64,000 nt of DNA, taken from IMG/VR virus record IMGVR_UViG_3300050500_000527; one strand, 5' to 3'. This document shows, piece after piece, positions 14,679-60,433 of the stretch. A program made the translations under genes and the position numbers. Under the pieces are notes generated by a model. The model did not search any database and was not told the origin of the DNA. It saw only the letters and a program-made list of their open reading frames with translations. This DNA is from a virus. Its lineage: Duplodnaviria; Heunggongvirae; Uroviricota; Caudoviricetes. Position 1 is the stretch's first letter; each line of letters starts with the position of its first letter.

Positions 14679-14730
14679 GGGGAGCCCTGAGGCAGCTTCT
14701 AACCGCCTCAGTATAACCGTATAATCGCGC

Positions 14731-15009: not shown

Positions 15010-15013
15010 GAGT

Positions 15014-16375
15014 CTACGCCCCCAAGAACTGGCGCATACCGCCGCGCTTACCACCCATTTTGTGGTAGAGCGCTTCGAATTCCGCTTCGCTCATATTGGC
15101 AATTGCGTCGGCCGTTAGGGCGTCGCTACCGGCTCCACCGACGCCGCTCAGCGTCGCAGAGGCCGCGCGGGCCGCTGCCTGATTGGCCAGGGCTTGAGCA
15201 TGGTTAATCGCCGCGGGCGTAGCCGAGTTCGGCACGGGCACCGGAGCGGCGGGCGGCGGAACCACCGCGGCGGCGGGCGCCGGAGCGGGGGCTGGTGCCG
15301 CGGTGGGTGCGGCGGGCGGTGCGTGACGGAAGCCCCGCATAATGGCGACGTTGTGGATAAACTCGGCGGGCCGCTTGCGCTGCTCATATGCCTTGCGCAC
15401 CAGCTGGGCTTCTTCTTCCCGAATTACCTGCATCCGCTGGTTGGGGTCTGTATAGCCCATCAGCGTCAGCTCAGCGTTGCGCGAATCGATCAGGTGCCGA
15501 TAGGCTTGAGCGAACTCCGGCTTCGCCGCGGCATAGGCCTGGGCGTCACCCTTATAGCTCTGCATCATATTGGCTTCGGTAAGCTGCCCTGAGACCTCCT
15601 CCACCTTCTTGGTGGCGGTTTCCTGAAGGGCCGTGATGCGCTGATCCATCTTCGCGATCTGGCGGCCCTGCCAGGCAGCATAGCCGAAGATATCCGTCTG
15701 CGGGTCGGGTGCTTCGTCCACCGGCTCGGGAGCGGGCGCCGGAGCGGCGGGCTGAGCGGGCGCCGCGCGCTGCGCCAACAGGTCGTTGAGCTGAGCGAAG
15801 CGGCCTTCCATGGTGGCCAGGTTCTGGCGCAGCTGGGTCAGCTCCGTGGTAGCCGTATCAGCGCGGGCGCGCTCCGACTTAAAGCGCTCACGGGCTTTAT
15901 GCAGAGCGGAGTGCGGCACGTAACGGCCGCGCGGGTCGCGCATTACGCCCTGGGCGTCGACCGTGAGGGTGTCAAAGTCTACTTCCTCATCTTCACCGAC
16001 GGCTTCCGAGTTCGGCGCCGGAGCGGCGGGCTGCGGTGGGGTAAGCGGCGCACCGTCGGGCGTAACCGGAGCGCGCGGCGCTTCCGCGGCGACGGGCGTC
16101 GGCGCCGGAGCGGGCGGAGGCGTATAGGCGGGCTGAGGTGTCAGGGGTCCGCCGTCGGGCGTAACCGGAGCGCGCGGCGCGACGGGTTCGGGCGCGACGC
16201 CCAGCCCCGCAGTGTCATTGCCGCGGGAGTTGAAATAGGCGAGCTCTTCCGGGCTAAGCTCTTCGCTTTCCCATCCCGATTTCTTCTCGCCGAGTTCAGT
16301 CCGGGTGAATTCGTCCGCGTTGGTCGGCGCGGGCTGCGGCGCCGCGGCGCCGGGGATATCAGTAGCGGTCGTCAT
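15014..16375 (-). CDS. proline/alanine-rich coiled-coil protein, candidate head scaffolding protein (453 aa)
   Basis: Directly downstream of the portal-like gene. Contains the internal tandem repeat APRAPVTPDG(G/A)PLTP twice, central coiled-coil segments and a C-terminal helix; composition is typical of scaffolding proteins. Confidence 0.4.
   Translation of the reverse strand: MTTATDIPGAAAPQPAPTNADEFTRTELGEKKSGWESEELSPEELAYFNSRGNDTAGLGVAPEPVAPRAPVTPDGGPLTPQPAYTPPPAPAPTPVAAEAPRAPVTPDGAPLTPPQPAAPAPNSEAVGEDEEVDFDTLTVDAQGVMRDPRGRYVPHSALHKARERFKSERARADTATTELTQLRQNLATMEGRFAQLNDLLAQRAAPAQPAAPAPAPEPVDEAPDPQTDIFGYAAWQGRQIAKMDQRITALQETATKKVEEVSGQLTEANMMQSYKGDAQAYAAAKPEFAQAYRHLIDSRNAELTLMGYTDPNQRMQVIREEEAQLVRKAYEQRKRPAEFIHNVAIMRGFRHAPPAAPTAAPAPAPAPAAAVVPPPAAPVPVPNSATPAAINHAQALANQAAARAASATLSGVGGAGSDALTADAIANMSEAEFEALYHKMGGKRGGMRQFLGA
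16049..16190. repeat. about 100-bp intragenic tandem direct repeat (GTCGGGCGTAACCGGAGCGCGCGGCGC twice) in the scaffold-like gene
   Basis: Seen directly; encodes the duplicated peptide APRAPVTPDG(G/A)PLTP. Confidence 0.55.
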
Positions 16376-16390
16376 TATGGCCTCCTGGGC

Positions 16391-18754
16391 TTAGAACGCT
16401 GGGGCGCCCGTTCCGGGCATTTCACGCGGGATATTCAGCAGGCCCATCGGCGCCGCGCCGCCGTCGGGACCCAATTCCATCGGCAAACCTTCGAAGAACT
16501 TGCCGCCTTCCGTCGGGAGCGCGCCCAACTGGGGCGGCCCGTCGAGGCTCATGCGGGAAGACGGTGCGCCGATCATTGGCGTCGGCGTTTCGTCGCCCAG
16601 CAGGCCGAGCCCGGCGAAGTCGTCCAGGCCGTAGCCGCCGAGCGGGTCTTCGTTCTTGTTGCCTTCCGTCGTGATATAACGGGCCTTGGCTTTGTCCAGC
16701 ATCGCCTGGGAAGCTTCCGCGCCCGCTGAGGCTAGGTCCAGCACCGTCTTGGCGCGGACTGCCTCAGTATCGGCCTGGGTTTTACCAAGGCCCATTTTAT
16801 CCACGATTAAGCCGAACTGCTCACGCTGAGCGATGGCTTTGTCTTTTTCCGCAACGGCCATCAGCTTATCCAGCTCGGCCTTAGCGGCGGCCATAGCCAT
16901 TTGTTGCTGCATCTGCTTCTGTGGGTCGGGATCCTTCAGCATGGTCTTGAGCGATTCGACCAGCTTGGCGGGCAGCGGCGAGTATTCCAGCAACAACAGT
17001 ACAATCTCGGGCGTCAACATATCCCGAATGGCGGGCAGCATCAGTTGGATCACGCCCCACGACTTTTCTTTCTGGTTGGGCGAAGTCGGGGCGTCGTCGA
17101 TGATAATGTCGTAATCGCCCTGGGTCTTATCCCGGAGCAGTTGTACGAACTTAAAGCCGTCCGGCCCAGTAACGCGGATCCACCGGCCGTCGCTGAGGTA
17201 ATTCTGCATCATGTAGAGCCGCACTCGGCCTACGCCCTTGCGGTAGCGCCTCAGCGAGTCGAACAACGTCGCGAGGATCGTCATTGCCGCCTGTTTACGC
17301 TGCGCTTCGAGGATGCCCGGCTGGGTGGCGTCGCGCATGCCCAGCAGCTCGAGGTTGATGCCGACTGTGTCGCGGATCGAGGTAATGGCGAATTGCAGCA
17401 AATTCATATAGGGCGCGGCGATGCCGCCGCCCGGCTTCTGGATAATCTTGCCTTTCTGGATGGCTTCCTTGCGCACCCAGGTAATAGCGTCGGGCTGGGC
17501 GTAGGTCTCTTCGGCTTCGCGCTGGTCGGGGAAGGCGTCTTCTTCAGCTAGGATGCCGCCCTTCGCCGTAGCGTTCAAGATGTGGAGCGACTGGCTGAGC
17601 CACTTATTGGCCCACATCTGCGGATCTTTCATCAGCCGCGTTAGGCCGAACCAAGTGCCCTCATTACGGTCGCGCTCGCCAGTGATGCACTGGAAGGTGA
17701 AGCGGTCAGCGACCGGCGCCGGGCGCACTTTGTTCAGAATGGAGGCGCCCAGGAAGGCTTGCTTATAGACGCGGCGGCGGCATTCCAAGGCGATGAGCGG
17801 CCGATCCAGCATCATGTAGCGCTTAGCCAGGCGCTGATATTCTTGCGGCGAATATTCTTGCGGAGCGCTGCCGGTGGCCGGATCCACGACGCGCCAATAG
17901 ACCTCCCGCTCCCACCACTGGCACTGCACGATGTGCACTTCGGTTTTGGGATCGAAGTCGAATTTCAAGTTTTCTTCGCGGAGGCGCCGGTCTTCGACGG
18001 GCTTTACCGGCTCGGTATTAATGCCCGCGGCGCGTGCCCAGGAGGCGTCGAGCTCAACGTCGGGCACGCCGGGGAAGAGCTCGCGGGCGTCGCTTAGCGC
18101 CATCTTACGCACGCGCCACACGCGGCGCGCATCCATCAGGTTCTTAGCGCGAGCGTTGTAGTCCCAGAACATCTCTAGCGGGTCGACGCGCTCTTCAACG
18201 TAGGTGCCTTCGGCGTCGAGCTCGAAGTCCAGGCGCATCTCCGTCCAGCCCATACCGCAGATGCAAGTATCCTGGAAGGCGTCGGACTGCTCATCCTGGG
18301 CGTCGCACCCGTCGCCCATCCACCGCGACCCCTCGGACAGCAGCTCGTTGAACTCGGCTTGCTGCATATTGGTGGCTTGGCGGGGCAGGAAGGCGATCTC
18401 ATGTCGGCCATTGATTTCAATGCCGGCAACGGATTTAATGATGGCGAGTGTACGGTTGAAGGTAATCGGGACGCGGCCCTGATCGGTTAGGGCACGCTCG
18501 TCTTGCGGGTCCCATTGACGGCAGGCCACGAAATCAAACTCATCGCGCGCGGCGCGGCGCCATTTGTTGGAGAATTGTGCGTCGAGGTCGAACCAGGTTT
18601 TAAGGGTCCGATAGAGCATCTCTTCGGTAAGCTGAGAAGGCGCCGAGGGCCGTTCTTCAATGCTTGCCTCCCCACTATGGGGCATGCCGGGCACGCCGCC
18701 ATTCCTTAATTTGGGATGGCCTGCATCGTAGTGTTCTACTGTGTAGTCGACCAT
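16391..18754 (-). CDS. portal (head-to-tail connector) protein, podovirus-type, 787 aa
   Basis: Large acidic protein in the terminase gene cluster with a C-terminal helical barrel-like segment (QMQQQMAMAAAKAELDKLMAVAEKDKAIAQ). Segments WDPQDERALTDQGRVPITFNR and GINLELLGMRDATQPGILEAQRKQAA resemble portal wing/clip regions. No search was run. Confidence 0.5.
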   Translation of the reverse strand: MVDYTVEHYDAGHPKLRNGGVPGMPHSGEASIEERPSAPSQLTEEMLYRTLKTWFDLDAQFSNKWRRAARDEFDFVACRQWDPQDERALTDQGRVPITFNRTLAIIKSVAGIEINGRHEIAFLPRQATNMQQAEFNELLSEGSRWMGDGCDAQDEQSDAFQDTCICGMGWTEMRLDFELDAEGTYVEERVDPLEMFWDYNARAKNLMDARRVWRVRKMALSDARELFPGVPDVELDASWARAAGINTEPVKPVEDRRLREENLKFDFDPKTEVHIVQCQWWEREVYWRVVDPATGSAPQEYSPQEYQRLAKRYMMLDRPLIALECRRRVYKQAFLGASILNKVRPAPVADRFTFQCITGERDRNEGTWFGLTRLMKDPQMWANKWLSQSLHILNATAKGGILAEEDAFPDQREAEETYAQPDAITWVRKEAIQKGKIIQKPGGGIAAPYMNLLQFAITSIRDTVGINLELLGMRDATQPGILEAQRKQAAMTILATLFDSLRRYRKGVGRVRLYMMQNYLSDGRWIRVTGPDGFKFVQLLRDKTQGDYDIIIDDAPTSPNQKEKSWGVIQLMLPAIRDMLTPEIVLLLLEYSPLPAKLVESLKTMLKDPDPQKQMQQQMAMAAAKAELDKLMAVAEKDKAIAQREQFGLIVDKMGLGKTQADTEAVRAKTVLDLASAGAEASQAMLDKAKARYITTEGNKNEDPLGGYGLDDFAGLGLLGDETPTPMIGAPSSRMSLDGPPQLGALPTEGGKFFEGLPMELGPDGGAAPMGLLNIPREMPGTGAPAF

Positions 18755-18784
18755 TGCTTAGTGCCCTACTCCCGCAGGCCGCCT

Positions 18785-19387
18785 TTATTCGACGCTCGCC
18801 ATCTCTAGGGTGACTTCGAATGTCTCACCTGAAGCGGGGGCATAGGCGCCCAGGGCTTCTAGGAGGCCGTAAAGGCGTCGTTCGCGGGCCGAGACGGATT
18901 GCAGGTCGAAGTTGATTTCTGGGCTGGCCGCGGCGGCTTTAATAACGTCCGTCGCAGTCACGAACGCGCCCGTGCTTAGGTCTAGGGCGATTGTGCCCAG
19001 GAAGTGTTGGGCGGTAGCGACTGCCAGGGCACCGTTATCGCCGTTCGTTACGACGGGAGATTGGCTGAAAAGGTGTAGGTTGAAGCTGGCTGCCGTCACC
19101 GTTTCGCTGTCTTTAAACAGCCGAGCGCGGCGGATAATACCACGTCCAGAGCTTAGGCGGGACGTGGTGAATTTGAGCGGGATAACGTCAGCCGCGTCTA
19201 CGTCATTGGCGATAAGGTCGCCCGCCGTGTAGGCGGTTGTGTTCGCGGGACGTGTAAAACTATTCGAAACCGAGATAATCATCTGATAGAGTCCCATCAT
19301 TGGTGAGGCCGCGTCACTTTCATCTTCAGCCGCCTCCGCTTGGAGCAAGGCTCCACCGATCAGAAGCGGTGAGTAGAGCCAGCTCAT
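18785..19387 (-). CDS. hypothetical protein with N-terminal signal-peptide-like segment (200 aa)
   Basis: MSWLYSPLLIGGALLQAEAA then an acidic stretch; function unknown; lies between the terminase large subunit and the portal. Confidence 0.35.
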   Translation of the reverse strand: MSWLYSPLLIGGALLQAEAAEDESDAASPMMGLYQMIISVSNSFTRPANTTAYTAGDLIANDVDAADVIPLKFTTSRLSSGRGIIRRARLFKDSETVTAASFNLHLFSQSPVVTNGDNGALAVATAQHFLGTIALDLSTGAFVTATDVIKAAAASPEINFDLQSVSARERRLYGLLEALGAYAPASGETFEVTLEMASVE

Positions 19388-19737
19388 TAGGCAACCTTTG
19401 AAATTCGCCAGTTAATGGCACGGTCCGTGCCCGCTGTTTTGTCTAGGGTCATATCCCACCCCACGCCCAGGATCAGGGAAGGCGAAACCCAGATCGGCTG
19501 GGACTGTACGCCTGTAAACGTCGCCTCGTAGACGACGCGCTGGGTGTCGCCAGTGCGGACTTTTTCGTACACCTTGAAAACGAATGTGTCGCCTGCGGCT
19601 AGGGCATTAAGGTCAATAAAAGCCTGATACAGCCCCGCATTAACGTCTACGTCAGGACCAGCTGTATCCGTCGTCAGCGAATGCTCGGTTGTTCCGATTG
19701 TTTCGGTGCCAGTATAGGCTTCAACGGTGATGGCCAT
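19387..19737 (-). CDS. hypothetical protein (about 116 aa, start MAITVEAY)
   Basis: ORF in the codon-biased frame; beta-rich threonine/valine-rich sequence. Confidence 0.35.
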   Translation of the reverse strand: MAITVEAYTGTETIGTTEHSLTTDTAGPDVDVNAGLYQAFIDLNALAAGDTFVFKVYEKVRTGDTQRVVYEATFTGVQSQPIWVSPSLILGVGWDMTLDKTAGTDRAINWRISKVA

Positions 19738-19750
19738 GGTCGTTGCGTTC

Positions 19751-20845
19751 CTATTGCACGAGGTAGGCAGCACAATCCAAATTGGTCTGTGCACCATTCA
19801 AGACGCTGCTGGCAGCACCCCGGATTTGGAGCTGCGTGCCCGCCGGAATATCGCAGAAAATTGGCCCCTGATAGAGCGAGACGCCGACTTCCGTCGAAGC
19901 CATGCCGCGATAGACGCGTGGTCCGATTTTCGTTCCGCCCGCGCCAAATTGGAAGTCGTAAGTAACCTTGGCTGCGGAAGCGCCGGTTACGCCACCGACC
20001 GCCCACTGGGCTGCACCGGACCGTGCTGCAGCTGGCGAGCCCAGGTTCGTCCAGCTGGAGAAATTCCCACTAACTGTGCCGCCCGACACGTAAGCATTAA
20101 CGAAAGTCGAGCCTTGGAGGTCGATATGAGTGCCGTCCACCACTGTAATGGTCCAGGCCCCGTTCGCTTCGGTGGTGCCCGTAACACCGGCTACAGCGCG
20201 CCGGTCGCCGGTCGTCATGCCAGTTGTTGAGGCGACGGTAAGGCGGATTAAGCCGCTACCGTTATCCGCGGCGCCCGAAACTGTAATCGCGCCGCCCGGC
20301 GTATGGAGTTGGCCGAGGCTATTCGCTGCATCGAAGGTGGCGATGCTTTGGACTTTCTGGCCGCACCACCAAGAAGCCGGGTTCTTATTGCCGCCGAACG
20401 CAGCGGCCAGCACGCGCGTGGAGGAGGGCGCCGAACCACTCTGCATACGGATGCGCGCACCGAGCGAGGCCCCGGCCGGTAGCCAGAGCGGGAAGTGGTA
20501 GGAAAGCGGGATGGCTGCGCCAGTGGCATTATAGAGAATCGTCGTGGTGAATCCGACGATGAGGTCAGCGATCAGCTCCGACCAGTTCGTGCCTCCGGCC
20601 GGATCGATCAGCAGGTCCATCAGCGCCGCATTGGCAGCATTGGACGTGCCCAAGCCCGAGACGGCCAGCCACAGATACTCGCAGTCATGGGCGAGCGCGG
20701 GCATCACTGTAACAGCCGTTCCGTCCGCGGAAGACACGCCCGCCGTAATGCCCGCACCGAAGCCCGTAGCGTCGTCCGCGAAGGGCGGGCCGAAATTGTC
20801 GGAATAATGGGCGAAGCAGGGGCCGCTCGGAACGATTAGACTCAC
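19751..20845 (-). CDS. hypothetical structural-like protein (364 aa, glycine/alanine/threonine-rich)
   Basis: Long ORF; composition resembles a beta-rich virion or fibre protein; no motif recognised. Confidence 0.35.
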   Translation of the reverse strand: MSLIVPSGPCFAHYSDNFGPPFADDATGFGAGITAGVSSADGTAVTVMPALAHDCEYLWLAVSGLGTSNAANAALMDLLIDPAGGTNWSELIADLIVGFTTTILYNATGAAIPLSYHFPLWLPAGASLGARIRMQSGSAPSSTRVLAAAFGGNKNPASWWCGQKVQSIATFDAANSLGQLHTPGGAITVSGAADNGSGLIRLTVASTTGMTTGDRRAVAGVTGTTEANGAWTITVVDGTHIDLQGSTFVNAYVSGGTVSGNFSSWTNLGSPAAARSGAAQWAVGGVTGASAAKVTYDFQFGAGGTKIGPRVYRGMASTEVGVSLYQGPIFCDIPAGTQLQIRGAASSVLNGAQTNLDCAAYLVQ

Positions 20846-20905
20846 AGCATATCCTCCGTTACATCTTCGTTCATGGCCAGCCCCCGCTCTTAAACGCCCC
20901 TGAGA

Positions 20906-21313
20906 CTATTGGTTGCGCGTAATCGTGGTCAGCTTTTTGCGCAACTCGATGGCCAGGATGAACGTGCCATCGAAGGCGGCGGACGCATGTTTGTTGTACA
21001 GCGTTACAGTGATGACGCCCGCTGTGGCCACGGCCTTAATAACGGGGGTGCCCGCCGCGGACGTGCCGCCATTCCAGGTCACTTGGACGTAATCACCGGC
21101 TTCAGCGCGGCCGTGGTTGATGGTCAGCGCTTGGCTCGCTGCCGCGGCCGTGGTCAACGCTTCCGTCGTCACCTGCATGGCCAGGCGGTCGGGATTCGCC
21201 GTGCCAGCATTCGAGCTCAGGGTGATCGCGTCGATTTCCTGAGCAATACCCACCATCTCCAGGATGCGGTTGCGGTAGGTCATATCCCGTACAACGGGTC
21301 CGCCAGTCGACAT
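20906..21313 (-). CDS. hypothetical protein (135 aa)
   Basis: ORF in the codon-biased frame; alanine/threonine-rich. Confidence 0.35.
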   Translation of the reverse strand: MSTGGPVVRDMTYRNRILEMVGIAQEIDAITLSSNAGTANPDRLAMQVTTEALTTAAAASQALTINHGRAEAGDYVQVTWNGGTSAAGTPVIKAVATAGVITVTLYNKHASAAFDGTFILAIELRKKLTTITRNQ

Positions 21314-21368
21314 TTCTATTATCCTCTCAAGGGGTTGTTCGCTTCACCCACAGGATGATTGCGTTAGA

Positions 21369-21596
21369 TCATGACGCTACAAAATCCCCATGGATGTTTG
21401 CCGCCATGATCTCAGCGGCTGTTTTGAGCGCGGGGATGAGGTCGGCGCTACCAGGCAACACAAGCTCTTCGTCGCGGGGCGCCATGTTGGGCTCGGTAAA
21501 CTTGAATCGCACCACCTGCTTCTTGTCGCGGTAGTACATACGCACGTCGCTTACGGTGCCTACGGGGTGCAGCGCATCGACGAGCGTAAGGCGCAC
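21369..21596 (-). CDS. hypothetical small protein (about 76 aa, GTG start next to the upstream stop)
   Basis: GTG at 21596 lies 1 nt after the TGA of the 200-aa gene. The longer ORF start at 21731 would overlap that gene by 134 nt. Confidence 0.3.
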   Translation of the reverse strand: MRLTLVDALHPVGTVSDVRMYYRDKKQVVRFKFTEPNMAPRDEELVLPGSADLIPALKTAAEIMAANIHGDFVAS

Positions 21597-21597
21597 A

Positions 21598-22200
21598 TCA
21601 ATGATCCCCACGGGGAGCGCCCTCCTTCTTGGGCTTCGTCGCCTTCTGGGCTGCGGCCTGCAGGACGCGCTCGTGACGAGCAGTCTGCTCTTGCAGGGCC
21701 TGATCGAGTTCGCGATCCTTTTGCTCCACAATGGCCAGGAAAGTCGCGCCGAGCTTCGTGATGATCGCGCTCTTGGGAAGCGGGTGAAGCTTGCCGCTGA
21801 GGTGCGCCCGGTTGAGCTCTTCCCATTCGTCGATCATGTCCTGGGCGAGCTCCTCCCATTCATGATAGTTCCAATGCGTGATGCCGCGCACGGCTATGTC
21901 ATGGCGAAGCTGATCTTGAATTGCGGGTCGCATCCAGCCCTGCACGGCCCGACCGAATTCAGCGCCGAGGCCCGCCCAGCCAACCAGGCCCGCGGGCGGC
22001 GAATAGGGAATTTCGAAGACGCGGCCAATGGGTGCATCAATAACTTTGACCACCGCAGCAACGCGGATGTTCTTATTGATGGTCCGTAGCGAAAGACGGA
22101 TGATCTCGGCGGGTTCAGGATAACCTAAAACTTCTGCGAAGCCTGCCTTAAAGGCTTCCAGTTCTTGACCCCCGATGTACTTACGGTAGACGCTAGGCAT
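21598..22200 (-). CDS. hypothetical protein (200 aa)
   Basis: AGGAGC ribosome-binding site upstream of ATG at 22200; first gene after the AT-rich island. Confidence 0.4.
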   Translation of the reverse strand: MPSVYRKYIGGQELEAFKAGFAEVLGYPEPAEIIRLSLRTINKNIRVAAVVKVIDAPIGRVFEIPYSPPAGLVGWAGLGAEFGRAVQGWMRPAIQDQLRHDIAVRGITHWNYHEWEELAQDMIDEWEELNRAHLSGKLHPLPKSAIITKLGATFLAIVEQKDRELDQALQEQTARHERVLQAAAQKATKPKKEGAPRGDH

Positions 22201-22382
22201 GGTTGGGTTTAAGCTCCTGTACTAGCTTTCATGCATGGCTAGCACCCTACCATTTATTGCTTTGAAATCATGCAGAAATTTATGCTGCACAACCTAACAA
22301 CGGTTGTAATACAGTAAAAAGTCAAGTAAAATCGTCACCGGAAGCGCTTCTTCGTCGGTGGGCTTCCAGCTTTCATGTTTTA

Positions 22383-22420
22383 GGGCATATTGGGGCTCGC
22401 TTTCTCTCCCTGGAGGCGAG
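22383..22420 (+). terminator. hairpin GGGCTCGC-N15-GCGAGCCC followed by TTTTACTT (terminator-like on the plus strand) inside the AT-rich island 22201-22429
   Basis: Perfect 8-bp GC stem plus a T-tract, seen directly; there is no plus-strand gene upstream. Confidence 0.35.
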
Positions 22421-22429
22421 CCCTTTTAC

Positions 22430-23881
22430 TTATGCCGCCCAGCCTGATACTCGTTTTGGCCGAGTAGAGCGGTGCAGGCCGGGCTTAACCTTCCGGTCTA
22501 GGCCCGCGGCGAGGGTTAACAGAAAGGCGTCGGCACGGTTCGGAGATTTGACACCGCGCTTTTTCATGTCTTTCTTGGACTCTACCACGATGCGGCCGTT
22601 AGAGTGGAAGTCATAGGTCGGCTGGCAGAGCTCGGCGATGGTGGCCTCGTCATTGAAAATGCAATTACGATCCATAAAGAACTTCCGGCCTTTGAACCAG
22701 AGTTCATCGCGCAGCCTCATATAGAGGTCGTCTGCACTGGGCACTTCGCCGACGTTAATGCCTGTCACGGGCAGGCGCAGCTCATTTAGCCGATCAACCA
22801 CGCCCGCGCCCAGGCCAATTACGTCGACCAAAATCTCGATGGGGCGCTCATCCGGATGGGTGGCATTGTATTCGGCCATAATCAGGCCCGCCACCTGCAT
22901 TGTGTCTTTCTGGTGCCACTCCTTAATCGGCTCTAAGAGCTTATTGCCCTTCCGCTTACACAGCGCAGTGCTGTCGTCGCCGTAACGGGCCACGTCAAGC
23001 CCCCAAACGGGGATGACGTCCGGAACGGCAATCTCTCGGAAACGCGCCGCTTCCATGAGTTCGAGCGGGATAACAGTTTCGTCGTCGGCGGTCGGGAATT
23101 CACCCAACACGCGGACACGATATTTGTTGGATCCCTTCCCGTAAGCCGCGATAATATCGTCGATGTGACCACGGGCGCGCGGCACGTCTTCCGAGCTAAC
23201 GACGAAGGTCTTCCACCGGCCGCGCAGCTTGTGGTGCGTATCATAGAAGAAGCCAGAAGCGCGGGTCGGGTTGCCCAGGAGGATAGCCTTGGCACCCGGC
23301 GAGGAGAGCGACCCCTGGGCGACTTCGAACACGATGTCATCGATGCCTGAGGCTTCGTCGATGATGTAGAAGGTATTCGTACCACGCAGGCCTTGCAGCG
23401 CTTCCGGGTTATTCTTAGAGGCAGTGCGAGCGACGGCGAAGGCGGCTTCCGCGGCGACCTTGATAAAGACGCGTTCCTTTTGGATCTCCACCTGTTTTTG
23501 GAGCTCTTCGGGGAGGCGCTTATGCCACTTGGTAATTTCTGGCCAGTTATTGTCCCGCAACTGATTCTGGCTGTTCGCCGCAATCGGAATCTTAACGTCG
23601 TCATGGGTCAACAGCGCCCAGAGCACGATCCAGCTGATAAATGCGCCCTTCCCCACGCCGTGGCCGGAGCGGATAGAAAGGCGATCATGCTTGGGAATAG
23701 CCCGCAATACTTCTTGCTGCCAGAACTCTAGCTGCGGCTCATTCTTCGGGTTCGGGGCGCCGAATGGCAACACGCCCAGGACGCCCGTAACGAAGATGTA
23801 GGGGTTGTTCTTGGATTGTAGCCAGGCGAGCTGCCAGCGTGGCAATTGCGGAACGACGGGCGGCTCTAGGAGGTCAACCAA
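22430..23881 (-). CDS. terL: terminase large subunit
   Basis: ATPase Walker A-like SGHGVGKG and Walker B TFYIIDEAS; C-terminal RNaseH-like nuclease motifs VWGLDVARYGDDSTAL and SPNRADAFLLTLA; 483 aa. Confidence 0.85.
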   Translation of the reverse strand: MVDLLEPPVVPQLPRWQLAWLQSKNNPYIFVTGVLGVLPFGAPNPKNEPQLEFWQQEVLRAIPKHDRLSIRSGHGVGKGAFISWIVLWALLTHDDVKIPIAANSQNQLRDNNWPEITKWHKRLPEELQKQVEIQKERVFIKVAAEAAFAVARTASKNNPEALQGLRGTNTFYIIDEASGIDDIVFEVAQGSLSSPGAKAILLGNPTRASGFFYDTHHKLRGRWKTFVVSSEDVPRARGHIDDIIAAYGKGSNKYRVRVLGEFPTADDETVIPLELMEAARFREIAVPDVIPVWGLDVARYGDDSTALCKRKGNKLLEPIKEWHQKDTMQVAGLIMAEYNATHPDERPIEILVDVIGLGAGVVDRLNELRLPVTGINVGEVPSADDLYMRLRDELWFKGRKFFMDRNCIFNDEATIAELCQPTYDFHSNGRIVVESKKDMKKRGVKSPNRADAFLLTLAAGLDRKVKPGLHRSTRPKRVSGWAA

Positions 23882-24365
23882 ACAACGCCCTCCGGATACG
23901 GACGAGCGCGGGCAGCGCAGCCTGCTCCCGAACGGGATCGGCTAGGGGTTTTTGGGGGTTTTTGGGGGTTTCCTGCTCCTGTTCGGGAGCCATCGCCCGG
24001 TCAGCGGAGGCACGCACCGCCCAAGTGTCAGGTTTAAGGTGCCTTCGGCTCAGCGCGCGCTGCGGCGAGCGCGCCGCGGTAAAGGTAGGCGGTACGATGC
24101 GGAACTGTTCTAGGCGATTTTTGTCCTGGAGCTCCACCTGGGCGACGAGCGATTCCGGTCGGTTATGCTTCATGCGGGCGAAGGCCCAGAGCTCCGTGGG
24201 GTCATGAGCGGTATCGAACATCGCCTCACGCACCGCTTTCCGCAGGATTGGCGGTAGCTTATCGAAGCACTCCATCCAATAGCGGGTGCGTTGCTCGTAA
24301 CGCGCACTAACGGGCGTGGAATAGTTCAGCGCGATAGATTCAGGCCGCTTCTTCCGGCGTGACAT
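23874..24365 (-). CDS. hypothetical protein between the terminase subunits (163 aa)
   Basis: Overlaps both terminase genes by short distances; contains the (GGGGGTTTTT)3 tract that encodes TPKNPQKP. Confidence 0.4.
   Translation of the reverse strand: MSRRKKRPESIALNYSTPVSARYEQRTRYWMECFDKLPPILRKAVREAMFDTAHDPTELWAFARMKHNRPESLVAQVELQDKNRLEQFRIVPPTFTAARSPQRALSRRHLKPDTWAVRASADRAMAPEQEQETPKNPQKPLADPVREQAALPALVRIRRALFG
23945..23972. repeat. tandem decamer (GGGGGTTTTT) x about 2.8 inside a coding region
   Basis: Seen directly; homopolymer runs G5/T5 repeated three times. Confidence 0.6.
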
Positions 24366-25110
24366 CGATAATGTCCTGGGTCAGCATTGGCGCGACCTGC
24401 CCCTGGGCCACCATCACCCAAAGGTTGCGGAAGGTCTCGTCGGCGCTGAGGTTGAGGTTGCTAGCGGGGTTCCAATCCTGCTTCCGGCGCGAGCGCAACC
24501 AGGCTTGGCACGCACCAACGTCGGGCGGAAGATGCTTCATCACTGGAATGACGTGCACCGAGCCCTGATGGGTCTTAAACTCTACGTCCGGATAACTATA
24601 GCCGACGGCCCGCTGGTAGAGCGAGCGGATTACCCGCTCGTCGGGTAGGTCTTTCCCGATAATCATCGCGCGGAAGAACTCTTCATGGCGCGACTGCCAG
24701 CCCCACATGGTGCTCATCGAGACGCCCAGGGCGCGCGCCACCTCAACGTCGGTGCCGCCCAGCTCACAGATCGTCTTAGCAATGCGGGCGTATTCGGAAC
24801 GGTAGGTGGTGCCCGCTTCGCCGCTCATGCAAGCTTGCTTTTGCAAGGCGCTGGCTTCGGGAATAGGCTCACCGCGGGGCAGGTAATCGCCAGGCTCAAT
24901 AAGGGGCGGGCCGGGCTGAGGCTCGTGAGGATGCTTCCCGTCGCGCAACTCCTGGAACGCGCGCTCGGCCGTAAGGTGCCGCTGAGCGGTATGCCTCCGG
25001 CCGCGCTTCTGTGCATTCGCCTTATTGCCCTTGGGCTTCTTCGCCTTACCTTTCGGAGGCGAGGTCCAAGCAGATTTGGATTTTTCTTCGTCGGACATGG
25101 AAAATGGCAT
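24340..25110 (-). CDS. terS: terminase small subunit (helix-turn-helix, Terminase_2-like)
   Basis: YARIAKTICELGGTDVEVARALGVSMSTMWGWQSRHEEFFRAM...ERVIRSLYQRAVGY matches the conserved helix-turn-helix core of small terminase subunits; lysine-rich N-terminus; immediately upstream of the terminase large subunit. Confidence 0.55.
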   Translation of the reverse strand: MPFSMSDEEKSKSAWTSPPKGKAKKPKGNKANAQKRGRRHTAQRHLTAERAFQELRDGKHPHEPQPGPPLIEPGDYLPRGEPIPEASALQKQACMSGEAGTTYRSEYARIAKTICELGGTDVEVARALGVSMSTMWGWQSRHEEFFRAMIIGKDLPDERVIRSLYQRAVGYSYPDVEFKTHQGSVHVIPVMKHLPPDVGACQAWLRSRRKQDWNPASNLNLSADETFRNLWVMVAQGQVAPMLTQDIIDVTPEEAA

Positions 25111-25183
25111 GAAAACGGGAAGTTATCATGGCCAGTATGTCTGAGTGCTTAGAACCCGACAAGATAAAACGTACTAGATACTA

Positions 25184-25534
25184 TCAGGACGCTTGTAAAA
25201 AGCTTATCCGATCTCCTTCCGCGAAGCGCAGCATCGTTTCTCCGGCGATAATAACCGAAGTGTCCGTGGCTTCTACAAGCGTTTGACCTGCGGCCGTATA
25301 TTCCATATGCACGCGGTAGCCTGCATCGACCTGGATGAGCACCATCTCTGTTTTGGCGGGTGCCAGGGAAGCGTCAGTGTGGACGGGGGTGACGAGGTCG
25401 ATGGTGAGCTTGGCTCGGCCGCGGGGCGGGTGGTTGAGAACATAGAGCGAATCGCTGTTCGGGCGGTTCGTCCCCCCGGAGGAAATCTTCAGCGAGCTAA
25501 GCCCAGGGAAGGCGAACACCCGAACAGAAGCCAT
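25184..25534 (-). CDS. hypothetical protein (116 aa)
   Basis: ATG 3 nt after the stop of the small glycine/lysine-rich ORF; no motif recognised. Confidence 0.35.
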   Translation of the reverse strand: MASVRVFAFPGLSSLKISSGGTNRPNSDSLYVLNHPPRGRAKLTIDLVTPVHTDASLAPAKTEMVLIQVDAGYRVHMEYTAAGQTLVEATDTSVIIAGETMLRFAEGDRISFLQAS

Positions 25535-25537
25535 GGG

Positions 25538-25669
25538 CTAGTAGCCTTTCTTGCCGCCGGAGGGCACCTTGGGCGGTTTGGGCGTCGCGGGCGCTCCGGC
25601 CTTACCGCCGCCCTTCATGCCGCCCTTCATGCCGGGCCCACAATTTTTGTTCAGCCAAACATCTTGCAT
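25538..25669 (-). CDS. unannotated 43-aa glycine/lysine-rich peptide (MQDVWLNKNCGPGMKGGMKGGGKAGAPATPKPPKVPSGGKKGY)
   Basis: GGAGAG ribosome-binding site about 7 nt upstream of ATG 25669; stop is 3 nt before the next ATG; absent from the ORF track because it is under 60 aa. Confidence 0.3.
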   Translation of the reverse strand: MQDVWLNKNCGPGMKGGMKGGGKAGAPATPKPPKVPSGGKKGY

Positions 25670-32913: not shown

Positions 32914-33990
32914 ATGAAAGCCGGAATCACCACCCAGGAACTCGCCACCCGCGTCCAGGCCAATATCGCGGCCCGTAAGGACATTATTGCTGGTGCCCGG
33001 TCCCTTGAGTTCCGCCACGACGAAGAGACCAACGCTCTCACGGCCGCGATCGAAGGCTTCGAGGGCGACTACGCAATGACGGACTTGTTCTCCCAGCAGG
33101 TTTATTCTGACCTGGGCCTGCCCGCGGTCTATGCTCGGGCGTTGAACGCCAACGACCGTCACCTGCTCGCCTACAACGTCAACCGCCTGGCGCAGCGGGA
33201 TAGCTCTACCCGGCTGATCCGCACCCTGGAACGCGATGCTAACAAGACGGCTCGCGCCTACCTCTCTAACGCCTATCGCCCGTTGGATAACGAGCAGGTG
33301 CTGGAGCAGGTGCTTCCGGCCCTGGGCGCGATCGACGGCCTGCAGATCACCGAGTGCGAGCTCACCGAAAACCGCATGTACATCAAGGCAATCACGCCGA
33401 AGATCGCGGGTGACGTGAAAGTCGGCGATACGATGTATGCGGGCGTGATCATCTCCAACTCGGAAGTCGGCGGCGGCGCCCTGAATATCTCGCTGCTGGC
33501 TTACCGGCTGCGTTGCCTGAACGGCTTGATTCTGCCGGACGGCAAGTTCCGGGCGATGCACCTGGGCAAGCGCGCCCAGGTCGGTGATGACGCCTACGAG
33601 CTGTTGACCACCGAAACCAAGCTGGCCGACGACCGCGTGCTGCTGATGAAGGCGCGCGACGTAGCGGCGGGCATTTTCACCCAGGACAATTTCGATAAGG
33701 TTCTGGGCAAGATGCGCGCCGCGGCCGAAGTTCAGCTGGACACCAAGCGCCCGGATAAGGCCGTGGAAGTGCTGGCCAAGGAAGTCGGCTTGAATGGTCA
33801 GGAGCAGTTCGACGTGCTCAGCCACCTGATCCAGGGCGGTGACCTCTCACGGTGGGGCTTTACCAACGCCGTCACCCGCGCTGCCCAGGACGTGCCGAGC
33901 TACGACCGTTCCGTGCAGCTGGAGCAGCTCGGCTCCCGTATCCTGGAGTTGCCTACCAAGACCTGGCGTGCTATGGAAGTCGCCGACTGA
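32914..33990 (+). CDS. DUF932-like phage/plasmid-associated protein (358 aa)
   Basis: AGGAG ribosome-binding site. GVIISNSEVGGGALNISLLAYRLRCLNGLI resembles the conserved v-N-S-h-D-G-s-s-a...R-l-v-C-s-N-G core of DUF932/TIGR03299 proteins, from memory. Confidence 0.4.
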   Translation: MKAGITTQELATRVQANIAARKDIIAGARSLEFRHDEETNALTAAIEGFEGDYAMTDLFSQQVYSDLGLPAVYARALNANDRHLLAYNVNRLAQRDSSTRLIRTLERDANKTARAYLSNAYRPLDNEQVLEQVLPALGAIDGLQITECELTENRMYIKAITPKIAGDVKVGDTMYAGVIISNSEVGGGALNISLLAYRLRCLNGLILPDGKFRAMHLGKRAQVGDDAYELLTTETKLADDRVLLMKARDVAAGIFTQDNFDKVLGKMRAAAEVQLDTKRPDKAVEVLAKEVGLNGQEQFDVLSHLIQGGDLSRWGFTNAVTRAAQDVPSYDRSVQLEQLGSRILELPTKTWRAMEVAD

Positions 33991-38566: not shown

Positions 38567-39490
38567 TCAGCGAAGCATCGTCGGGCTGGAGAGCAACCCT
38601 GGGCCCTGGCCAAGCGTCGGCCGGTTGGCCAGCAGGGCTTGCAAGCGGCTCATGTCAACTTGCGGACGCTGCATTGCAGGGGTTTGCGGCACCTGGGCAC
38701 CCGCGAGCGGGTTTGCGGGGTCCGGCTGGCCGGAGCTGTTCATCATCTTGCCGAAGTCGAAGCCGCCTTCGCCGAAGAGCGAGGAGAGCAAGCCGCCGCT
38801 ACCAGAAAGAGCCGAGCCCAGGGAGCCTACACCCGCGCCGCCCGCCGCGGCGCCTGCACCGGATTCGAAGAGGGAGGCGAGGAAAGGGAGCACGGCTTGT
38901 TCCTTCTGGGCTGGGGCGGGCTGGGCCGCCGCGGGAGGGGTTGTGGGGGAAGCCGCGGTAGGCGCCATCGAAGCGACCACGTCCGCGGTGTTAAATGGGT
39001 CGCTCGGCGTAGCCGCGCGCGGGGTCTTCGCGACTTCGGTGCCGGGCTCGGCGATGCGCTTACCCGCCCAGTTGATTACGTCGGCGCCAGTCCAATTAGC
39101 CAGGAATGGGTTCGCCTTAATGGCTGCGGGACTAAGCAGCTCACGTGCCGGTTTTTCTGGATTCGCCAGGAGCGCCGCGGCGCCTTGCGGTCCGGCGAAG
39201 TGGGAGAGCGAAATATTCTCGTCGCTCGGCGCGTAGCCGCGGCCAGCTAGGTAGCGGCCGTTTTCCTCGCCATAGCGCTTGGTCATCTCTTCGTTGAGCG
39301 CTGGGTCGGACCGTAGCGCGAGCACCTCGGCCTGGCTGCGCCCCTGCATCAGGTCTGGACGATAACGGGCAATCATGTTTAGCCAAGTTGAGCTAATGAA
39401 CTGCCCAGGGCCGTAGGCCGAGGAATTCGGGTTGCGTGCGTGGCGACGGCCATCGCTCTCAGCATTGATTATGCGCTGTTCAATCGCCAT
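38567..39490 (-). CDS. lytic transglycosylase (SLT-domain) virion-associated peptidoglycan hydrolase, 307 aa
   Basis: INAESDGRRHARNPNSSAYGPGQFISSTW fits the SLT catalytic E-S ... AxGxxQ(F/M) ... T/W pattern; glycine/alanine-rich C-terminal tail. Confidence 0.55.
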   Translation of the reverse strand: MAIEQRIINAESDGRRHARNPNSSAYGPGQFISSTWLNMIARYRPDLMQGRSQAEVLALRSDPALNEEMTKRYGEENGRYLAGRGYAPSDENISLSHFAGPQGAAALLANPEKPARELLSPAAIKANPFLANWTGADVINWAGKRIAEPGTEVAKTPRAATPSDPFNTADVVASMAPTAASPTTPPAAAQPAPAQKEQAVLPFLASLFESGAGAAAGGAGVGSLGSALSGSGGLLSSLFGEGGFDFGKMMNSSGQPDPANPLAGAQVPQTPAMQRPQVDMSRLQALLANRPTLGQGPGLLSSPTMLR

Positions 39491-39547
39491 TTTTAGAGGA
39501 ACCCCTGCCGAGGTTGTAGCGCCCTAGTGCTAAAGTGCAGTATTGTG

Positions 39548-39553
39548 TATAAT
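39548..39553 (+). promoter_or_regulatory. consensus -10 hexamer TATAAT (preceded by TGTG) for the small plus-strand gene
   Basis: Perfect TATAAT, 35 nt upstream of ATG 39589; weak -35. Confidence 0.35.
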
Positions 39554-39588
39554 GTGTTGAAAATCACGGGTAAAATGGAGTAGAGCGT

Positions 39589-39789
39589 ATGGCGTTTACT
39601 TTCACTGAACAGGTAAAACAAATTCTTCGTGCCTCGGGCTTCACCGAAGCTGAAATTCGCACTCAGGAAGTGCGCACCGCCCAGGGCATGAACCAGAGTA
39701 AACGCCCTGACGGAGCGGAACCGGGCATTGAATTGCCCGAGCGCTTTACTGGCAAGCCAGAAGACCTCCCTAAAGTTTTTCAAAATTAA
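39589..39789 (+). CDS. small protein (66 aa) encoded antisense to the structural operon, low-GC codon usage
   Basis: GGAG ribosome-binding site 9 nt before ATG; own TATAAT box; locally AT-rich (about 48 percent GC); 3-prime end overlaps the stop of the giant gene convergently. Confidence 0.45.
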   Translation: MAFTFTEQVKQILRASGFTEAEIRTQEVRTAQGMNQSKRPDGAEPGIELPERFTGKPEDLPKVFQN

Positions 39790-42700
39790 TCTCCTCAAGC
39801 TCCTGCAACCAAATATCGGTGCGCGGGTCACCATATGTGTCTGCGCCGCTATCGTCGATATGCGTGATTAAGAAGTGGCGTTCCGTCGGGAAGAGCACTT
39901 CTTTTTCAGACTGATGCGAGGAGAGTTCCTCGATATTCCGTCCGGTTAGGGACTGGATATGCAACTTTACCTTACCGCTGAAGCTGTTCGTCTTGTCGTA
40001 ACTGGTCGACCAGAACGCGGGCGTGACGATTATCCGGCCAGGCTTCCACTTCGCGAGCTCCTCCGCGTCGAGATCTTGGCCGCGATAAACCTCGCCGGTG
40101 AAGGGCGGTAACTTCTCTAGGGCACTTTCCAGCAGCTCCGCGTAGCTCAACCAACGCAGGCGTTCCGTGCCCAGAGCGAGCGGGTCGGAACGACCGGCCT
40201 TCTTGTCCTGGCGCAACTCACGGTTAATGTCGTCGGAGTGGTCGCCCGTATAGGCGTAGATCGCGGCAAACTCTTCCGCACTAAGGCCGTGCCGCTCAGC
40301 GGCGTCATTTCTGTAGTTTTCATCGAAGTCGTAAACAGATTGCAGCGCCTTTTTACGTCGTTCTTGGGACGAACTTAGCTTTTGGAAAAAGCGATGGAAC
40401 TTGTTGGCGAGGTTGTGTTTACGCTGCAAGGCGTAATCTAGAAAAGCGTCGCGGTTTTTCGGGCGGCCCTTAAAGCGCGCTTCGGCATAAGGCCGGATCA
40501 TGCCCAGGTAGGCTTCGTCCGTGAGCCCGTTCTGCAACGTGTTGATCGCCTCATAGGCCGGTTCGAAGAGCTTATTGTCGACTTCGGCGCGACCTTCTTC
40601 GACTGCCTGTTTCAGGCCGTAGAACCGGACGTTGAGCTGGCTCTTCTTCCGCTCAAGTTCGCTTATCTCCTTTGCGGAAAGCATGCCCGCTTCCGGATAA
40701 AGATTACGGACCTGTTGGAAAAACGCTGGAAATTCGGAGCGGGGCTTTGACCGCACATGGTCAAGAATAAAGTCCCAAAGGCTATTGTCTGGCCGAATTT
40801 CTGGTAGGCGGCCCGCATTCAGTGCGTCGTCATAGCGTGCGGTGAGCGCATAACGGACCGCGCTTTCCGCGCTACGCATCGCATTGTAAACGGGCGTTTC
40901 GTACTCTGCTTTCAGTGCCGGGATTTGTAAATCCTCGGCCTTCACCTTATTGGGGTCAGCGTTTTCTAACAGGTCGGCTTGCTCAGCCGTAATCGCGCGA
41001 CCTTCTTCGTTGCCGAGCTGCTCTCCGGCGCGGCGTAACACGTCCGCCATAAAGCCATTCACCGCTTCATAAGTCGAAGCAGCGAGCTCGTTCTTCTCCT
41101 TGTTGTAGCCGTAGTCTCGCCAGTTCTCTAGAGTCTGCGGCGCGATTAGTGCAACGATTTTTCCATCCGGGAAGGTGACATGGTCGTAGCCCTGAGTGCG
41201 TAAGAACGCGGCGTTCGCCTCCCCTGCCGGGCCGCCAGTTTGAGCAAGGTAGCTATCGGTAGAAGGATAGAAGCCAAATTTCTCTTGTGCCTCCTCGGCG
41301 CTAATACCATTCTGCGGTGTAAAAGTTGTCCGCTGCAGGTCGGGCGGAAAGGATCTGTTCGCCCAGAGCATGGTTTGCTCTGGATCTTTCGAGATCAGGA
41401 AGGAACGCTCACCTTTCCCGCTAACCCGCGTCCACCAGTCATTCGGTTTCAGCGTCAGGGCTTCTTTAATGTCCCCTAGGAACCGCTGCTCGTATTTATC
41501 GAAAACTTCTTTGAGTGCAGATCTCACTTCCTTGATCGAGGGGTGGTCCCGGTCAGTTAGATCGGTAATGCGATTCCTCGTCGCCTGTTCGACTTCGTTT
41601 TTTGCTTCCCGCTGAGCGTTCAGGTTCTCAGTAACACTTTCAAGCTCTTCTTGGACGCGCTTAAATTCTGCCTCGTCTTCCGTGAGCTGTGCACCCCCCT
41701 GGGCAGTGATCTTTTTAACCACCCCATCGAGCTTCCCCTGGGTTAGGGCACGCCAGAGCTTATTGTAAATCGGCTCTTCTTCGCCGTACACCTCGTTGGG
41801 GTGGTAATCGGTATCCAGGCGGTCTTTGCCGATATATTTAAACGCCTGGCCTTTATCGATGCCGACCAGGCCCTTATCCGTAATCAGGAACTGGTTCGAG
41901 TGGCCGTCATGGTTGGAAATCAGCCAGTCCACCACGTGTTCACGCATGAGCGCAGTGATTTCTTGCGGCGTAAGCTCGCTCATCTTCGTGCCGCGCAGCG
42001 TCCCGCTATTGGGCAGCATCTCCTGCATGACGCCCAGGCGGCCGTTGAGGCTTTGCACCCAGATACGCGGTGCGTTCGGGTTTATGAGCCGCGAGATATG
42101 GCCACCAGCCGCTTCGCCATGCGCTGAGAAGGGGCGGTCCGGCAGGTTCGGCTTGAACATATACTCATTGCCTTCTTCGTCCTGCCAGATCTCCTTCGGC
42201 TTGGACCCGCCGCCCGCATTCCCGACGAAGGTGTAATTGCGGTCCGGCGCCGGGATTAGGTCATCGAAACTGAGCCCCGCGGGCACGCTAACGGCGGGCG
42301 CCGCCGTGGTATCCGGCGCTGTATCAATCGTTCCAGCGAAGTCGCGCATTGCGCGGGCGGTGGCCGCGTAACCTTCTTTCTCGTTAGCCGCTGCATTGTG
42401 GAGTAGATTGTCGATAACAGCCTGCTTAAAGGCCTGGGTTTTTACGACATCTGTGTAGGGGCCTTGGTCTTTGAAGACTTCGTTGTAGACAAATTGAATG
42501 CTGTCCCGGATGATCTTTTTAAGAGAGGAATTCAGCTGAGATTTATTCAGTGCCTCGGTGAGGGATTTGTGGGTCTTGGGGCTCGACGGAGCGAGCTCTT
42601 CGCCGGTTAGCGCATTCTTGGCAATTGCTTCGTTAACTTGCTTCTGCTGGACAGCAGTATTCTCGTTCGCCTGCTTCTTCAGCGTATTCGCGCCTTCGAA

Positions 42701-60329: not shown

Positions 60330-60433
60330 AAATGTCCCCCGTCGGTTATTGTGCCGGCGAGTTTAGGCTACACGGCCCCCCGCGTATTGTGCGAGAAGCG
60401 AGCGAAGTAAAAAGCGAAGCCCCGACGTTGCCG

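Follow-up and report, generated by a model that had tools for sequence, protein, structure and literature searches.

On a 64,000-nt stretch of the tailed-phage record IMGVR_UViG_3300050500_000527 (Caudoviricetes), hereafter the window, a 66-aa open reading frame (ORF) lies on the plus strand within a run of virion genes that are read from the minus strand. The question that it raises is whether so small a frame is a gene at all and, if it is, what holds it between a transglycosylase gene and the gene of a giant, 2445-aa protein. Comparison with relatives identifies the ORF as a genuine, vertically inherited protein-coding gene under purifying selection, and its presence follows that of an ADP-ribosyltransferase (ART) domain at the end of the giant protein. 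We tentatively read the small protein as an independently transcribed partner of this terminal ART domain, akin to an immunity protein or an antitoxin, and put the probability of this reading at roughly one in three. The window is part of a genome of ~100 kb (the longest contig of its cluster has 100,719 bp), and contigs identical to that of the window are found in the Logan assemblies of two runs, SRR5585586 and SRR5582390.

An initial annotation of this DNA had placed an ATG at position 39589, 66 codons on the strand opposite the virion operon, a gap of about 280 bp between the transglycosylase gene and the giant gene, and a 3′ end that overlaps the stop of the 2445-aa gene convergently. Our measurements agree on each of these points: the translation is the one quoted, the gap is 279 bp (39491–39769), and the overlap is 20 nt (Table 1). 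The neighboring genes are all on the minus strand, and the start of the small gene lies 98 nt from the start of the transglycosylase gene, which runs in the divergent direction. In terms of length alone, the ORF is uninformative in this DNA, where 79 ORFs of at least 40 aa were counted in 11.5 kb; it is the comparative evidence that lifts the 66-aa ORF above chance.

A word-indexed search with the 66-aa protein returned the protein itself as the sole match. An exhaustive HMMER and profile search among ~15 billion proteins revealed 13 family members of 64–72 aa, one of which is a 108-aa call with a mis-set start. The loci of the relatives are labeled L003, L005–L012, L014, and L015, and their giant proteins are ~38–54% identical to that of the window over the aligned parts. 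The same junction holds a homologue of the small gene in L003, L005, L006, L007, L008, L009, L010, L011, L012, and L014. In all six giant-gene relatives that end in an ART domain, a small ORF on the opposite strand converges on the giant gene and is followed by a wall-hydrolase gene, and the same arrangement is seen on three short contigs; the convergent overlap is 4–20 nt in the seven loci measured and is also present by gene calls at L010, L011, L012, and L014. The homology search that had been suggested for the 66-aa product thus finds homologues in which the frame is conserved (11 loci). The family proteins align from residue 1 onward, the N-terminal half being defined by the motif (I/F)T(Y/F)xPEVKxLLRASG(M/F)T(D/E)AEIxTxEV(R/K) and the C-terminal half by an acidic, proline-rich tail with conserved (P)ERF and DLP motifs.

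The alternative that the frame is not a gene, and is open by chance in an untranslated operon spacer or as the shadow of a 113-aa ORF, draws on the abundance of short antisense ORFs in this GC-rich DNA and on the longer ORF of the other strand, which covers the same gap. The pattern of substitution refutes it. Between L005 and L006, the small gene differs at 43 nucleotides, distributed 7/9/27 over codon positions 1/2/3, which corresponds to a ratio of nonsynonymous to synonymous substitution rates (dN/dS) of 0.14; for more distant pairs, the proportion of nonsynonymous differences (pN) is 0.24–0.55 and synonymous sites are saturated. The small frame is kept in 11 loci, whereas the 113-aa operon-strand frame is interrupted in L003, L007, and L008 and is poorly kept where it is open, with 36 of 69 residues identical between L005 and L006 as against 56 of 69 in the frame of the small gene. 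The operon-strand ORF was consequently rejected as a real gene. Because the frame is conserved, differences accumulate at third positions, dN/dS is low, and the rival frame is not conserved, the substitution data mark the 66-aa ORF as a real gene, and the chance that it is not one is negligible.

The distribution of the family is narrow. Among the INPHARED phages, megablast gave no match to the window, and tblastn gave domain-level matches only, for the transglycosylase, giant, and portal proteins; the best transglycosylase match, Microcystis phage Mwe-JY08, has another architecture and no small gene. Single-protein scans of IMG/VR found nothing, and alignment scans with the small family gave no match in IMG/VR or in GTDB genomes (185,579 species genomes). 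Alignment scans of IMG/VR and JGI with the terminal ART domain recovered only the already known 100,523-bp relative, and a scan with the hydrolase alignment recovered 14 more distant phages, none of which carries the giant gene, the ART domain, or the small gene. By these comparisons, the family of the small gene is new, unannotated, and confined to a rare clade of ~100-kb metagenomic tailed phages.

The initial annotation had taken the gene for a moron, a self-promoted foreign insertion of the kind seen with lysogenic-conversion or anti-defence genes; in its full form, this reading would have the gene enter the late operon recently and be expressed from a prophage. Several features fit such an origin: the gene lies on the opposite strand, a TATAAT hexamer is present upstream, the GC content of the ORF is 0.507 compared with 0.601 for the whole window, its third-position GC content (GC3) of 0.49 is among the lowest of the ORFs in the window, and a 211-aa tyrosine recombinase encoded in the window leaves lysogeny possible. 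The local drop in GC content is real (0.46–0.55 in 150-nt windows over 39450–39950), although the ~63% that had been given for the surroundings is slightly high. The 3′ end of the giant gene is low in GC as well, and the lower GC content is common to all homologues and to the adjacent ART-coding DNA. The base-composition check proposed alongside the moron interpretation therefore does find the ORF lower in GC and GC3, but an offset that recurs in every homologue and in the ART-coding DNA is better read as characteristic of the whole family than as a mark of recent transfer. The small gene is present in 11 of 11 ART-bearing loci though the neighboring proteins are only ~38–54% identical, and for this reason we consider it, on comparative grounds, to be ancestral to the clade, an old fixture and not a recently inserted foreign gene. 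The gene also has no terminator of its own, no homologue outside the clade was found as a donor in protein searches, IMG/VR, or the 185,579 species genomes, and no prophage copies were found in GTDB genomes. The moron interpretation is thus not supported; it is largely refuted by the conservation of the gene, and we regard it as very improbable. Apart from the recombinase, which is short for an integrase and might serve lysogeny, a plasmid-like state, or dimer resolution, no sign of lysogeny was detected.

What, then, is the gene linked to? The giant protein closes with an ART domain. In each of the eight loci where the giant gene is complete, this domain retains the invariant R, S-T-S, and E-x-E residues, and it is, as judged by these residues, catalytically intact. 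Of the loci in which ART closes the giant gene, 11 of 11 carry the small gene, and it is absent from the one locus, L015, in which the giant gene does not end in ART. L015 is syntenic: the gene upstream of its giant gene is 39% identical to the 818-aa protein of the window, the N-terminal domain of its giant protein is 54% identical, and the hydrolase encoded downstream is an orthologue of the one in L007, L008, and L010. The giant gene of L015, however, encodes 4127 aa without an ART domain, the small gene is missing, and the gap between the giant and hydrolase genes is only 61 nt. The downstream hydrolase comes in two catalytic versions among the loci that carry the small gene, and because both versions occur with it, the small gene tracks the ART end and not the hydrolase. 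This distribution points to a function that is tied to the neighbor and not to free-standing lysogenic-conversion cargo.

With several unrelated domains in a virion-gene context, the giant protein fits the class of polyvalent proteins, for which Iyer et al. (2017, PMC5512222) propose packaging in the virion and injection along with the DNA; by this context and this proposal, the giant protein would be delivered with the DNA as well. LPD23 domains are found in two relatives. At aa ~1634–1876, the protein has a second ART-like region, with a match to the ART portion of the “minor capsid and ADP-ribosyltransferase fusion” proteins of mycobacteriophages, and aa 382–564 resemble the N-terminal part of N4-type virion RNA polymerase (phrog_2206, E 3.6e-8); no polymerase domain was detected in the giant protein.

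The small protein has no match in Pfam, PHROG, or NCBIfam and no significant match in the PDB. AlphaFold2 with the family alignment gives a predicted local distance difference test (pLDDT) score of 84–93 for residues 1–30 and 54–62 for the tail. The predicted topology starts with an extended segment (residues 1–6), followed by a helix (residues 7–15), a turn containing G-x-T, and a second helix (residues 20–37), before the chain passes into the low-confidence tail. The N-terminal half is weakly basic, with net charges of -1 to +3, and the tail is acidic and proline-rich. The model suggests a folded N-terminal module followed by a disordered, acidic, proline-rich tail that carries a conserved aromatic motif. 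The topology and the G-x-T turn recall a ribbon-helix-helix protein, but helix A is ~4 residues shorter than in such proteins and hhalign gives a probability of at most 6%; ribbon-helix-helix homology was thus rejected. The best PDB profile match, to the LigA-like helix of the borosin precursor SonA, was likewise discarded, since it extends over 21 residues with a non-significant E of 0.45, Pfam LigA is not matched, and no modifying enzyme is encoded nearby. Mimicry by the tail of the C-terminal tail of the giant protein (ELPE..F..L) was also considered and is not significant in six of seven loci; in the seventh, L007, z = 3 stems from a DNA inverted repeat. This imperfect repeat, seen in L007 only (~14190–14330), spans the junction, joining the DNA for the last residues of the giant protein and the DNA for the tail of the small protein, and gives rise to the similar peptides WNKLAEDD and WRKFQEDD.

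Taken with the co-occurrence (11 of 11 as against 0 of 1), a predicted folded N-terminal part with an acidic disordered tail suits a binding partner, and both observations speak for reading the small protein as a partner of the ART domain. A possible mechanism can be outlined. Host RNA polymerase would transcribe the small gene independently of the late operon, from a start near 39560, and the separate promoter on the opposite strand would allow the small protein to be made at times when the late genes are off. Through its disordered tail, the small protein would bind the adjacent ART domain, and binding would neutralize the enzyme or hold it in check in cells that carry the phage genome. Such a cell may be the one that produces the phage, or it may be a lysogen or carrier that sibling virions reach. 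The conserved blocks upstream of the gene could act as its own operator, with possible autoregulation. The more specific form of this proposal, in which the small protein is a dedicated neutralizer of the injected ART of the phage and the two form a convergent, separately promoted cassette, is put forward with greater reserve than a partnership as such.

Several observations weigh against a partnership of this type. A gene for an immunity protein or an antitoxin normally has the same orientation as its toxin gene and is transcribed together with it, and the small gene is convergent with the toxin-domain gene on the opposite strand. ART and small protein are conserved orthologues here and not polymorphic cassette pairs, and no homology of the small protein to immunity or antitoxin families was detected. 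The association with ART depends on a single negative locus, L015, which differs over the entire C-terminal third of the giant protein. Comparison of distance matrices (mirror tree) yields a Pearson r of 0.57 for the small protein with ART and 0.33 with the N-terminal domain of the giant protein, but the rank correlations are alike, 0.37 for ART and 0.38 for the unrelated N-terminal domain. It is also not obvious why a lytic phage would need to shield a cell that it is about to lyse; as to lifestyle, a recombinase is present but no prophage copies were found in GTDB genomes. Finally, T4 Alt, the best-studied packaged ART, is not known to have an immunity protein.

The chief rival to the partner proposal is a protein with independent timing that is unrelated to its neighbors and held in position only by the synteny of the structural module. 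It might be a small regulator of transcription, or a factor for host takeover or anti-defence that is made early or in the middle of infection. With the N-terminal hairpin as its folded core, it would dock onto a host protein through the acidic tail, or its N-terminal part would bind DNA. The opposite orientation and the promoter-like signals of the gene imply a program unlike that of the late genes; phage proteins directed at the host are typically small, match no known family, and have a disordered acidic tail with a short conserved motif; and conserved upstream blocks suit an autoregulated DNA-binding protein. Such a role leaves unexplained why the gene is lost exactly where the ART end is missing and the flanking genes are kept. 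For a DNA-binding protein in particular, the N-terminal half is not consistently basic (net charges as given above), no similarity to ribbon-helix-helix or helix-turn-helix proteins was detected, and the 64 kb hold no second copy of the upstream motif as a further target. We consider this rival only slightly less probable than the partner reading.

The region upstream of the small gene was expected, from the initial annotation, to hold a TATAAT promoter of the gene’s own. The TGTG and TATAAT elements are indeed found where they had been reported (39544–39547 and 39548–39553), and a GGAG ribosome-binding site is present, although its spacing to the ATG is 8 nt and not the 9 nt given earlier. 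A purine-rich GGAG, AAGG, or GGAGG stands at the equivalent site in L003, L005, L006, L007, and L009, and a weaker one in L008. The hexamer is rare in this DNA, with nine occurrences in the 64 kb when both strands are counted, and as a promoter it is more ambiguous. TGTG abuts it directly, so that the combination is not a canonical TGnTATAAT extended -10 element, and a two-hexamer sigma-70 scan of the window calls no promoter at the small gene because TATAAT has no -35 partner. At the homologous position, the relatives show TATAAC (L009), TATTCG (L003), CAAGTT (L005), TAAGTT (L006), or TATAAT (L010). On the strand of the small gene, the same scan calls a promoter in L006 (GTGAAA-17-TAGAAT) and L014 (GTTACA-16-TAGAAT), and a second -10-like box lies farther upstream in L005, L006, L008, L010, L012, and L014. 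The claim of a self-contained promoter is thus borne out in part, as promoter-like and ribosome-binding signals, and falls short at the -35 element, at the scan of the window, and at the conservation of the hexamer.

TATAAT itself is not conserved, but the upstream blocks around it are, despite saturated synonymous sites. The block GAAAATCACGG, also written GAAAATCA(CGG), is exact or near-exact in L003, L005, L006, L008, L009, and L014 and unique in the 64-kb window at 0 mismatches. The distance from the first base of GAAAATCA to the ATG is 30 nt in L005, L009, and L014, as in the window, and 23 nt in L008. This block probably marks the transcription start or the 5′ leader of the small gene. 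The second block, CAGTATTGTGTA in the window and CATTATTGTGTA in relatives, would be a promoter element or an operator, and no extended match to it was found elsewhere in the window. We infer that the upstream region serves this gene specifically, as its promoter and leader, and that an operator may be part of it. A promoter motif of genome-wide use was considered and rejected, as neither ATTATTGTG nor GAAAATCACGG recurs with extended similarity in the 64 kb. Two copies of TATTGTGC, 40 nt apart, lie in an intergenic region of the minus-strand virion block (60330–60433) and have a TATTGTG core in common with the block upstream of the small gene, possibly by chance. The gap contains trivial short repeats only, and neither a conserved RNA structure (RNAalifold) nor an Rfam match was found for the leader.

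The convergent arrangement also bears on the transcript. Downstream of the small ORF, no intrinsic terminator was found, whether in the window or in eight relatives, and the transcript must consequently extend antisense into the ART-coding region of the giant gene. The suggestion that transcription of the small gene could generate antisense RNA against the giant gene is thereby strengthened, as overlap and missing terminator make antisense unavoidable. On the operon strand, hairpins with T-containing tails are present in 6 of 10 loci (the window, L003, L006, L007, L009, and L010), 30–105 nt past the giant stop and within the variable, linker-coding part of the small ORF. Their stems are of 14 bp in L003, 12 bp in L010, 8 bp in L009, and 5 bp in the window, and L005, L008, L012, and L014 have none. 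These hairpins may be partial terminators between the giant and hydrolase genes. An operon-strand sigma-70 promoter for the hydrolase gene, TTGATG-17-CACAAT as identified by eye, fits L009 and L003 only and was dismissed as not conserved.

Should RNA be the main product of the gene, it would act as a cis-antisense transcript to the 3′ end of the giant gene or through transcriptional interference at the giant/hydrolase junction. The 3′ ends overlap convergently in every locus, transcripts would reach the ART-coding region in all nine loci inspected for terminators, and the operon-strand hairpins fall into the same segment. Purifying selection on the protein, the third-position excess, and the conserved ribosome-binding site and start are at odds with an RNA as the main product, as is a leader with neither conserved structure nor Rfam match, and we judge this alternative unlikely. 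An antisense effect on the giant gene may coexist with a function of the protein but, as the protein sequence itself is conserved, it cannot be the whole explanation.

Table 1. Sequence features of the small gene, its neighbors, and its control region in the 64,000-nt window
Feature	Position	Strand	Remarks
Small gene, 66 aa	39589–39789	+	Founding member of an unannotated family of 64–72 aa
Giant gene, 2445 aa	39770–47107	-	Polyvalent-protein gene; product probably packaged and injected
Terminal ART domain of the giant protein	39851–40384	-	aa 2242–2419 of 2445; Pfam ART E 1.8e-12; ADPrib_exo_Tox E 8.7e-12
3′-end overlap of small gene and giant gene	39770–39789		20 nt, convergent
Gene of 307-aa protein with SLT-like transglycosylase domain	38567–39490	-	Next gene of the virion operon; phrog_4067 E 5e-20; tblastn; orthologues
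Conserved block CAGTATTGTGTA (relatives: CATTATTGTGTA)	39538–39549	+	Overlaps the -10 region; putative promoter element or operator
TATAAT, -10-like hexamer	39548–39553	+	No usable -35
Conserved block GAAAATCACGG, also GAAAATCA(CGG)	39559–39569	+	First base 30 nt before ATG; probable transcription start or leader
GGAG ribosome-binding site	39577–39580	+	8 nt before ATG
Weak terminator-like hairpin	39703–39717	-	Operon strand; 5-bp stem; within antisense of the small ORF
113-aa ORF	39493–39834	-	Operon strand; spans the same gap; antisense shadow of the small gene
211-aa tyrosine recombinase	12415–13050	+	Phage_integrase E 2.2e-12; short for an integrase

The wider genome is that of a tailed phage with recognizable portal, terminase, and major capsid genes, and the minus-strand block from ~34 kb onward consists of virion genes. 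In all, the virion genes form two minus-strand blocks, one at 14358–26798 (terminase, portal) and one at 34041–63868 (capsid, giant protein, tail-like), with ~7 kb of plus-strand genes between them. In this intervening segment, a tRNA-Ser gene (anticodon CGA; 31332–31423, plus strand) lies just upstream of a Band_7 (stomatin/prohibitin-like) gene. Three accessory genes were noticed as well. The gene at 32914–33990 (plus strand) encodes a phrog_1362 protein, annotated as DUF932 in the records of relatives. The other two are on the minus strand: one at 4412–5101 encodes an HD_4 domain, a Pfam family that we take to be RelA/SpoT-type hydrolase-like, and one at 26157–26798 encodes a NUDIX domain, which in one relative is fused into the giant protein.

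Comparison of the wall hydrolases of L003, L005, L006, and the window (38567–39490) with those of L007, L008, L010, and L015 reveals two alternative N-terminal catalytic domains, an SLT-like domain with AESxG…SSAYGPGQF and a domain that starts with MAYWG..DPLWLSLSGPQRAAAMALLEA, which is SleB-like by eye only. Both types have in common a Gly/Ala-rich C-terminal half that ends in RPxVDMSxLQAMxxxRPxLG. The pattern suggests that a single orthologous virion gene has exchanged its catalytic domain.

Effector enzymes packaged in virions, among them T4 Alt, MuF toxins, and polyvalent proteins, presumably enter the cell together with the phage DNA. Little has been explored of how a cell that carries the phage copes with them, and immunity ORFs beside phage toxins have mostly been assigned from position alone. 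The locus described here offers a compact, testable pair: an intact ART domain and a 66-aa neighbor that accompanies it in every ART-bearing relative and is absent from the one relative without ART. Were the partner proposal true, the effector ends of polyvalent virion proteins would behave like toxin-immunity modules, and a cell with the phage genome would be safe from ART, whether the enzyme is made inside it or injected by sibling virions. An interaction of the pair would provide a handle on the control of packaged effectors and a new small-protein family for this topic. If the two do not interact, what is left is a clean, clade-specific small phage gene with conserved control sequences that is transcribed opposite to the late operon. 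In either case, the locus cautions that a low GC content and a TATAAT hexamer inside a late operon do not by themselves mean recent acquisition.

In terms of architecture, the small gene is reminiscent of the morons of lambdoid phages, such as lambda bor and HK97 gp15, in being a small gene with promoter-like signals and a composition unlike its surroundings inside a late structural operon. Unlike these, it is not variably present among close relatives but ancestral to the clade, it lacks a dedicated terminator, and its homologues are confined to this clade. Another parallel is the immI region of P22 (mnt/arc/sar), in which small regulators and an antisense RNA are embedded in the late operon; here too a small gene is transcribed against the late operon within the virion region, and antisense overlap is unavoidable. 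No antirepressor gene is found here, however, no ribbon-helix-helix homology is detectable, and the partner is a structural giant gene.

The antitoxins of type II systems (CcdA, RelB, ParD) are of similar size (64–72 aa in the present family) and, like the model of the small protein, combine a folded N-terminal part with an acidic tail that carries a conserved hydrophobic or aromatic motif; conserved upstream DNA, here a possible operator, is a further likeness. No similarity in sequence or fold was detected, helix A is short, and the small gene is convergent and outside the toxin operon, the toxin being a domain of a 2445-aa structural protein. With polyvalent proteins and T4 Alt, the 2445-aa protein has in common that several unrelated domains, ARTs among them, are encoded among virion genes in one product that is presumably injected. 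A keyword look-up of the article on polyvalent proteins (PMC5512222) returned neither an immunity protein nor a partner gene on the opposite strand.

The closest parallel in layout is offered by MuF and other polymorphic toxins, in which small immunity-type ORFs follow 89% of the toxin-bearing MuF genes of temperate phages (Jamet et al. 2017, PMC5576092) and, more generally, C-terminal toxin domains and immunity genes form cassettes (Zhang et al. 2012, PMC3482391). As in these systems, the last domain of a multi-domain virion protein is an enzyme of toxin type, here ART, and a very short ORF without a recognizable domain adjoins the toxin end and is present or absent together with the toxin domain. 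The two genes are convergent here, with overlapping 3′ ends and separate promoter signals, whereas the immunity ORFs of the toxin systems are co-directional and immediately downstream. The carrier, moreover, is a giant polyvalent protein and not MuF, the pair is conserved and orthologous and not swapped, and neutralization is a proposal by analogy. Set against these systems, the two themes of the locus are known, namely a small ORF next to a toxin domain that a phage delivers and a small gene that runs counter to the late operon around it, and what is new at this locus is an unannotated family of small proteins.

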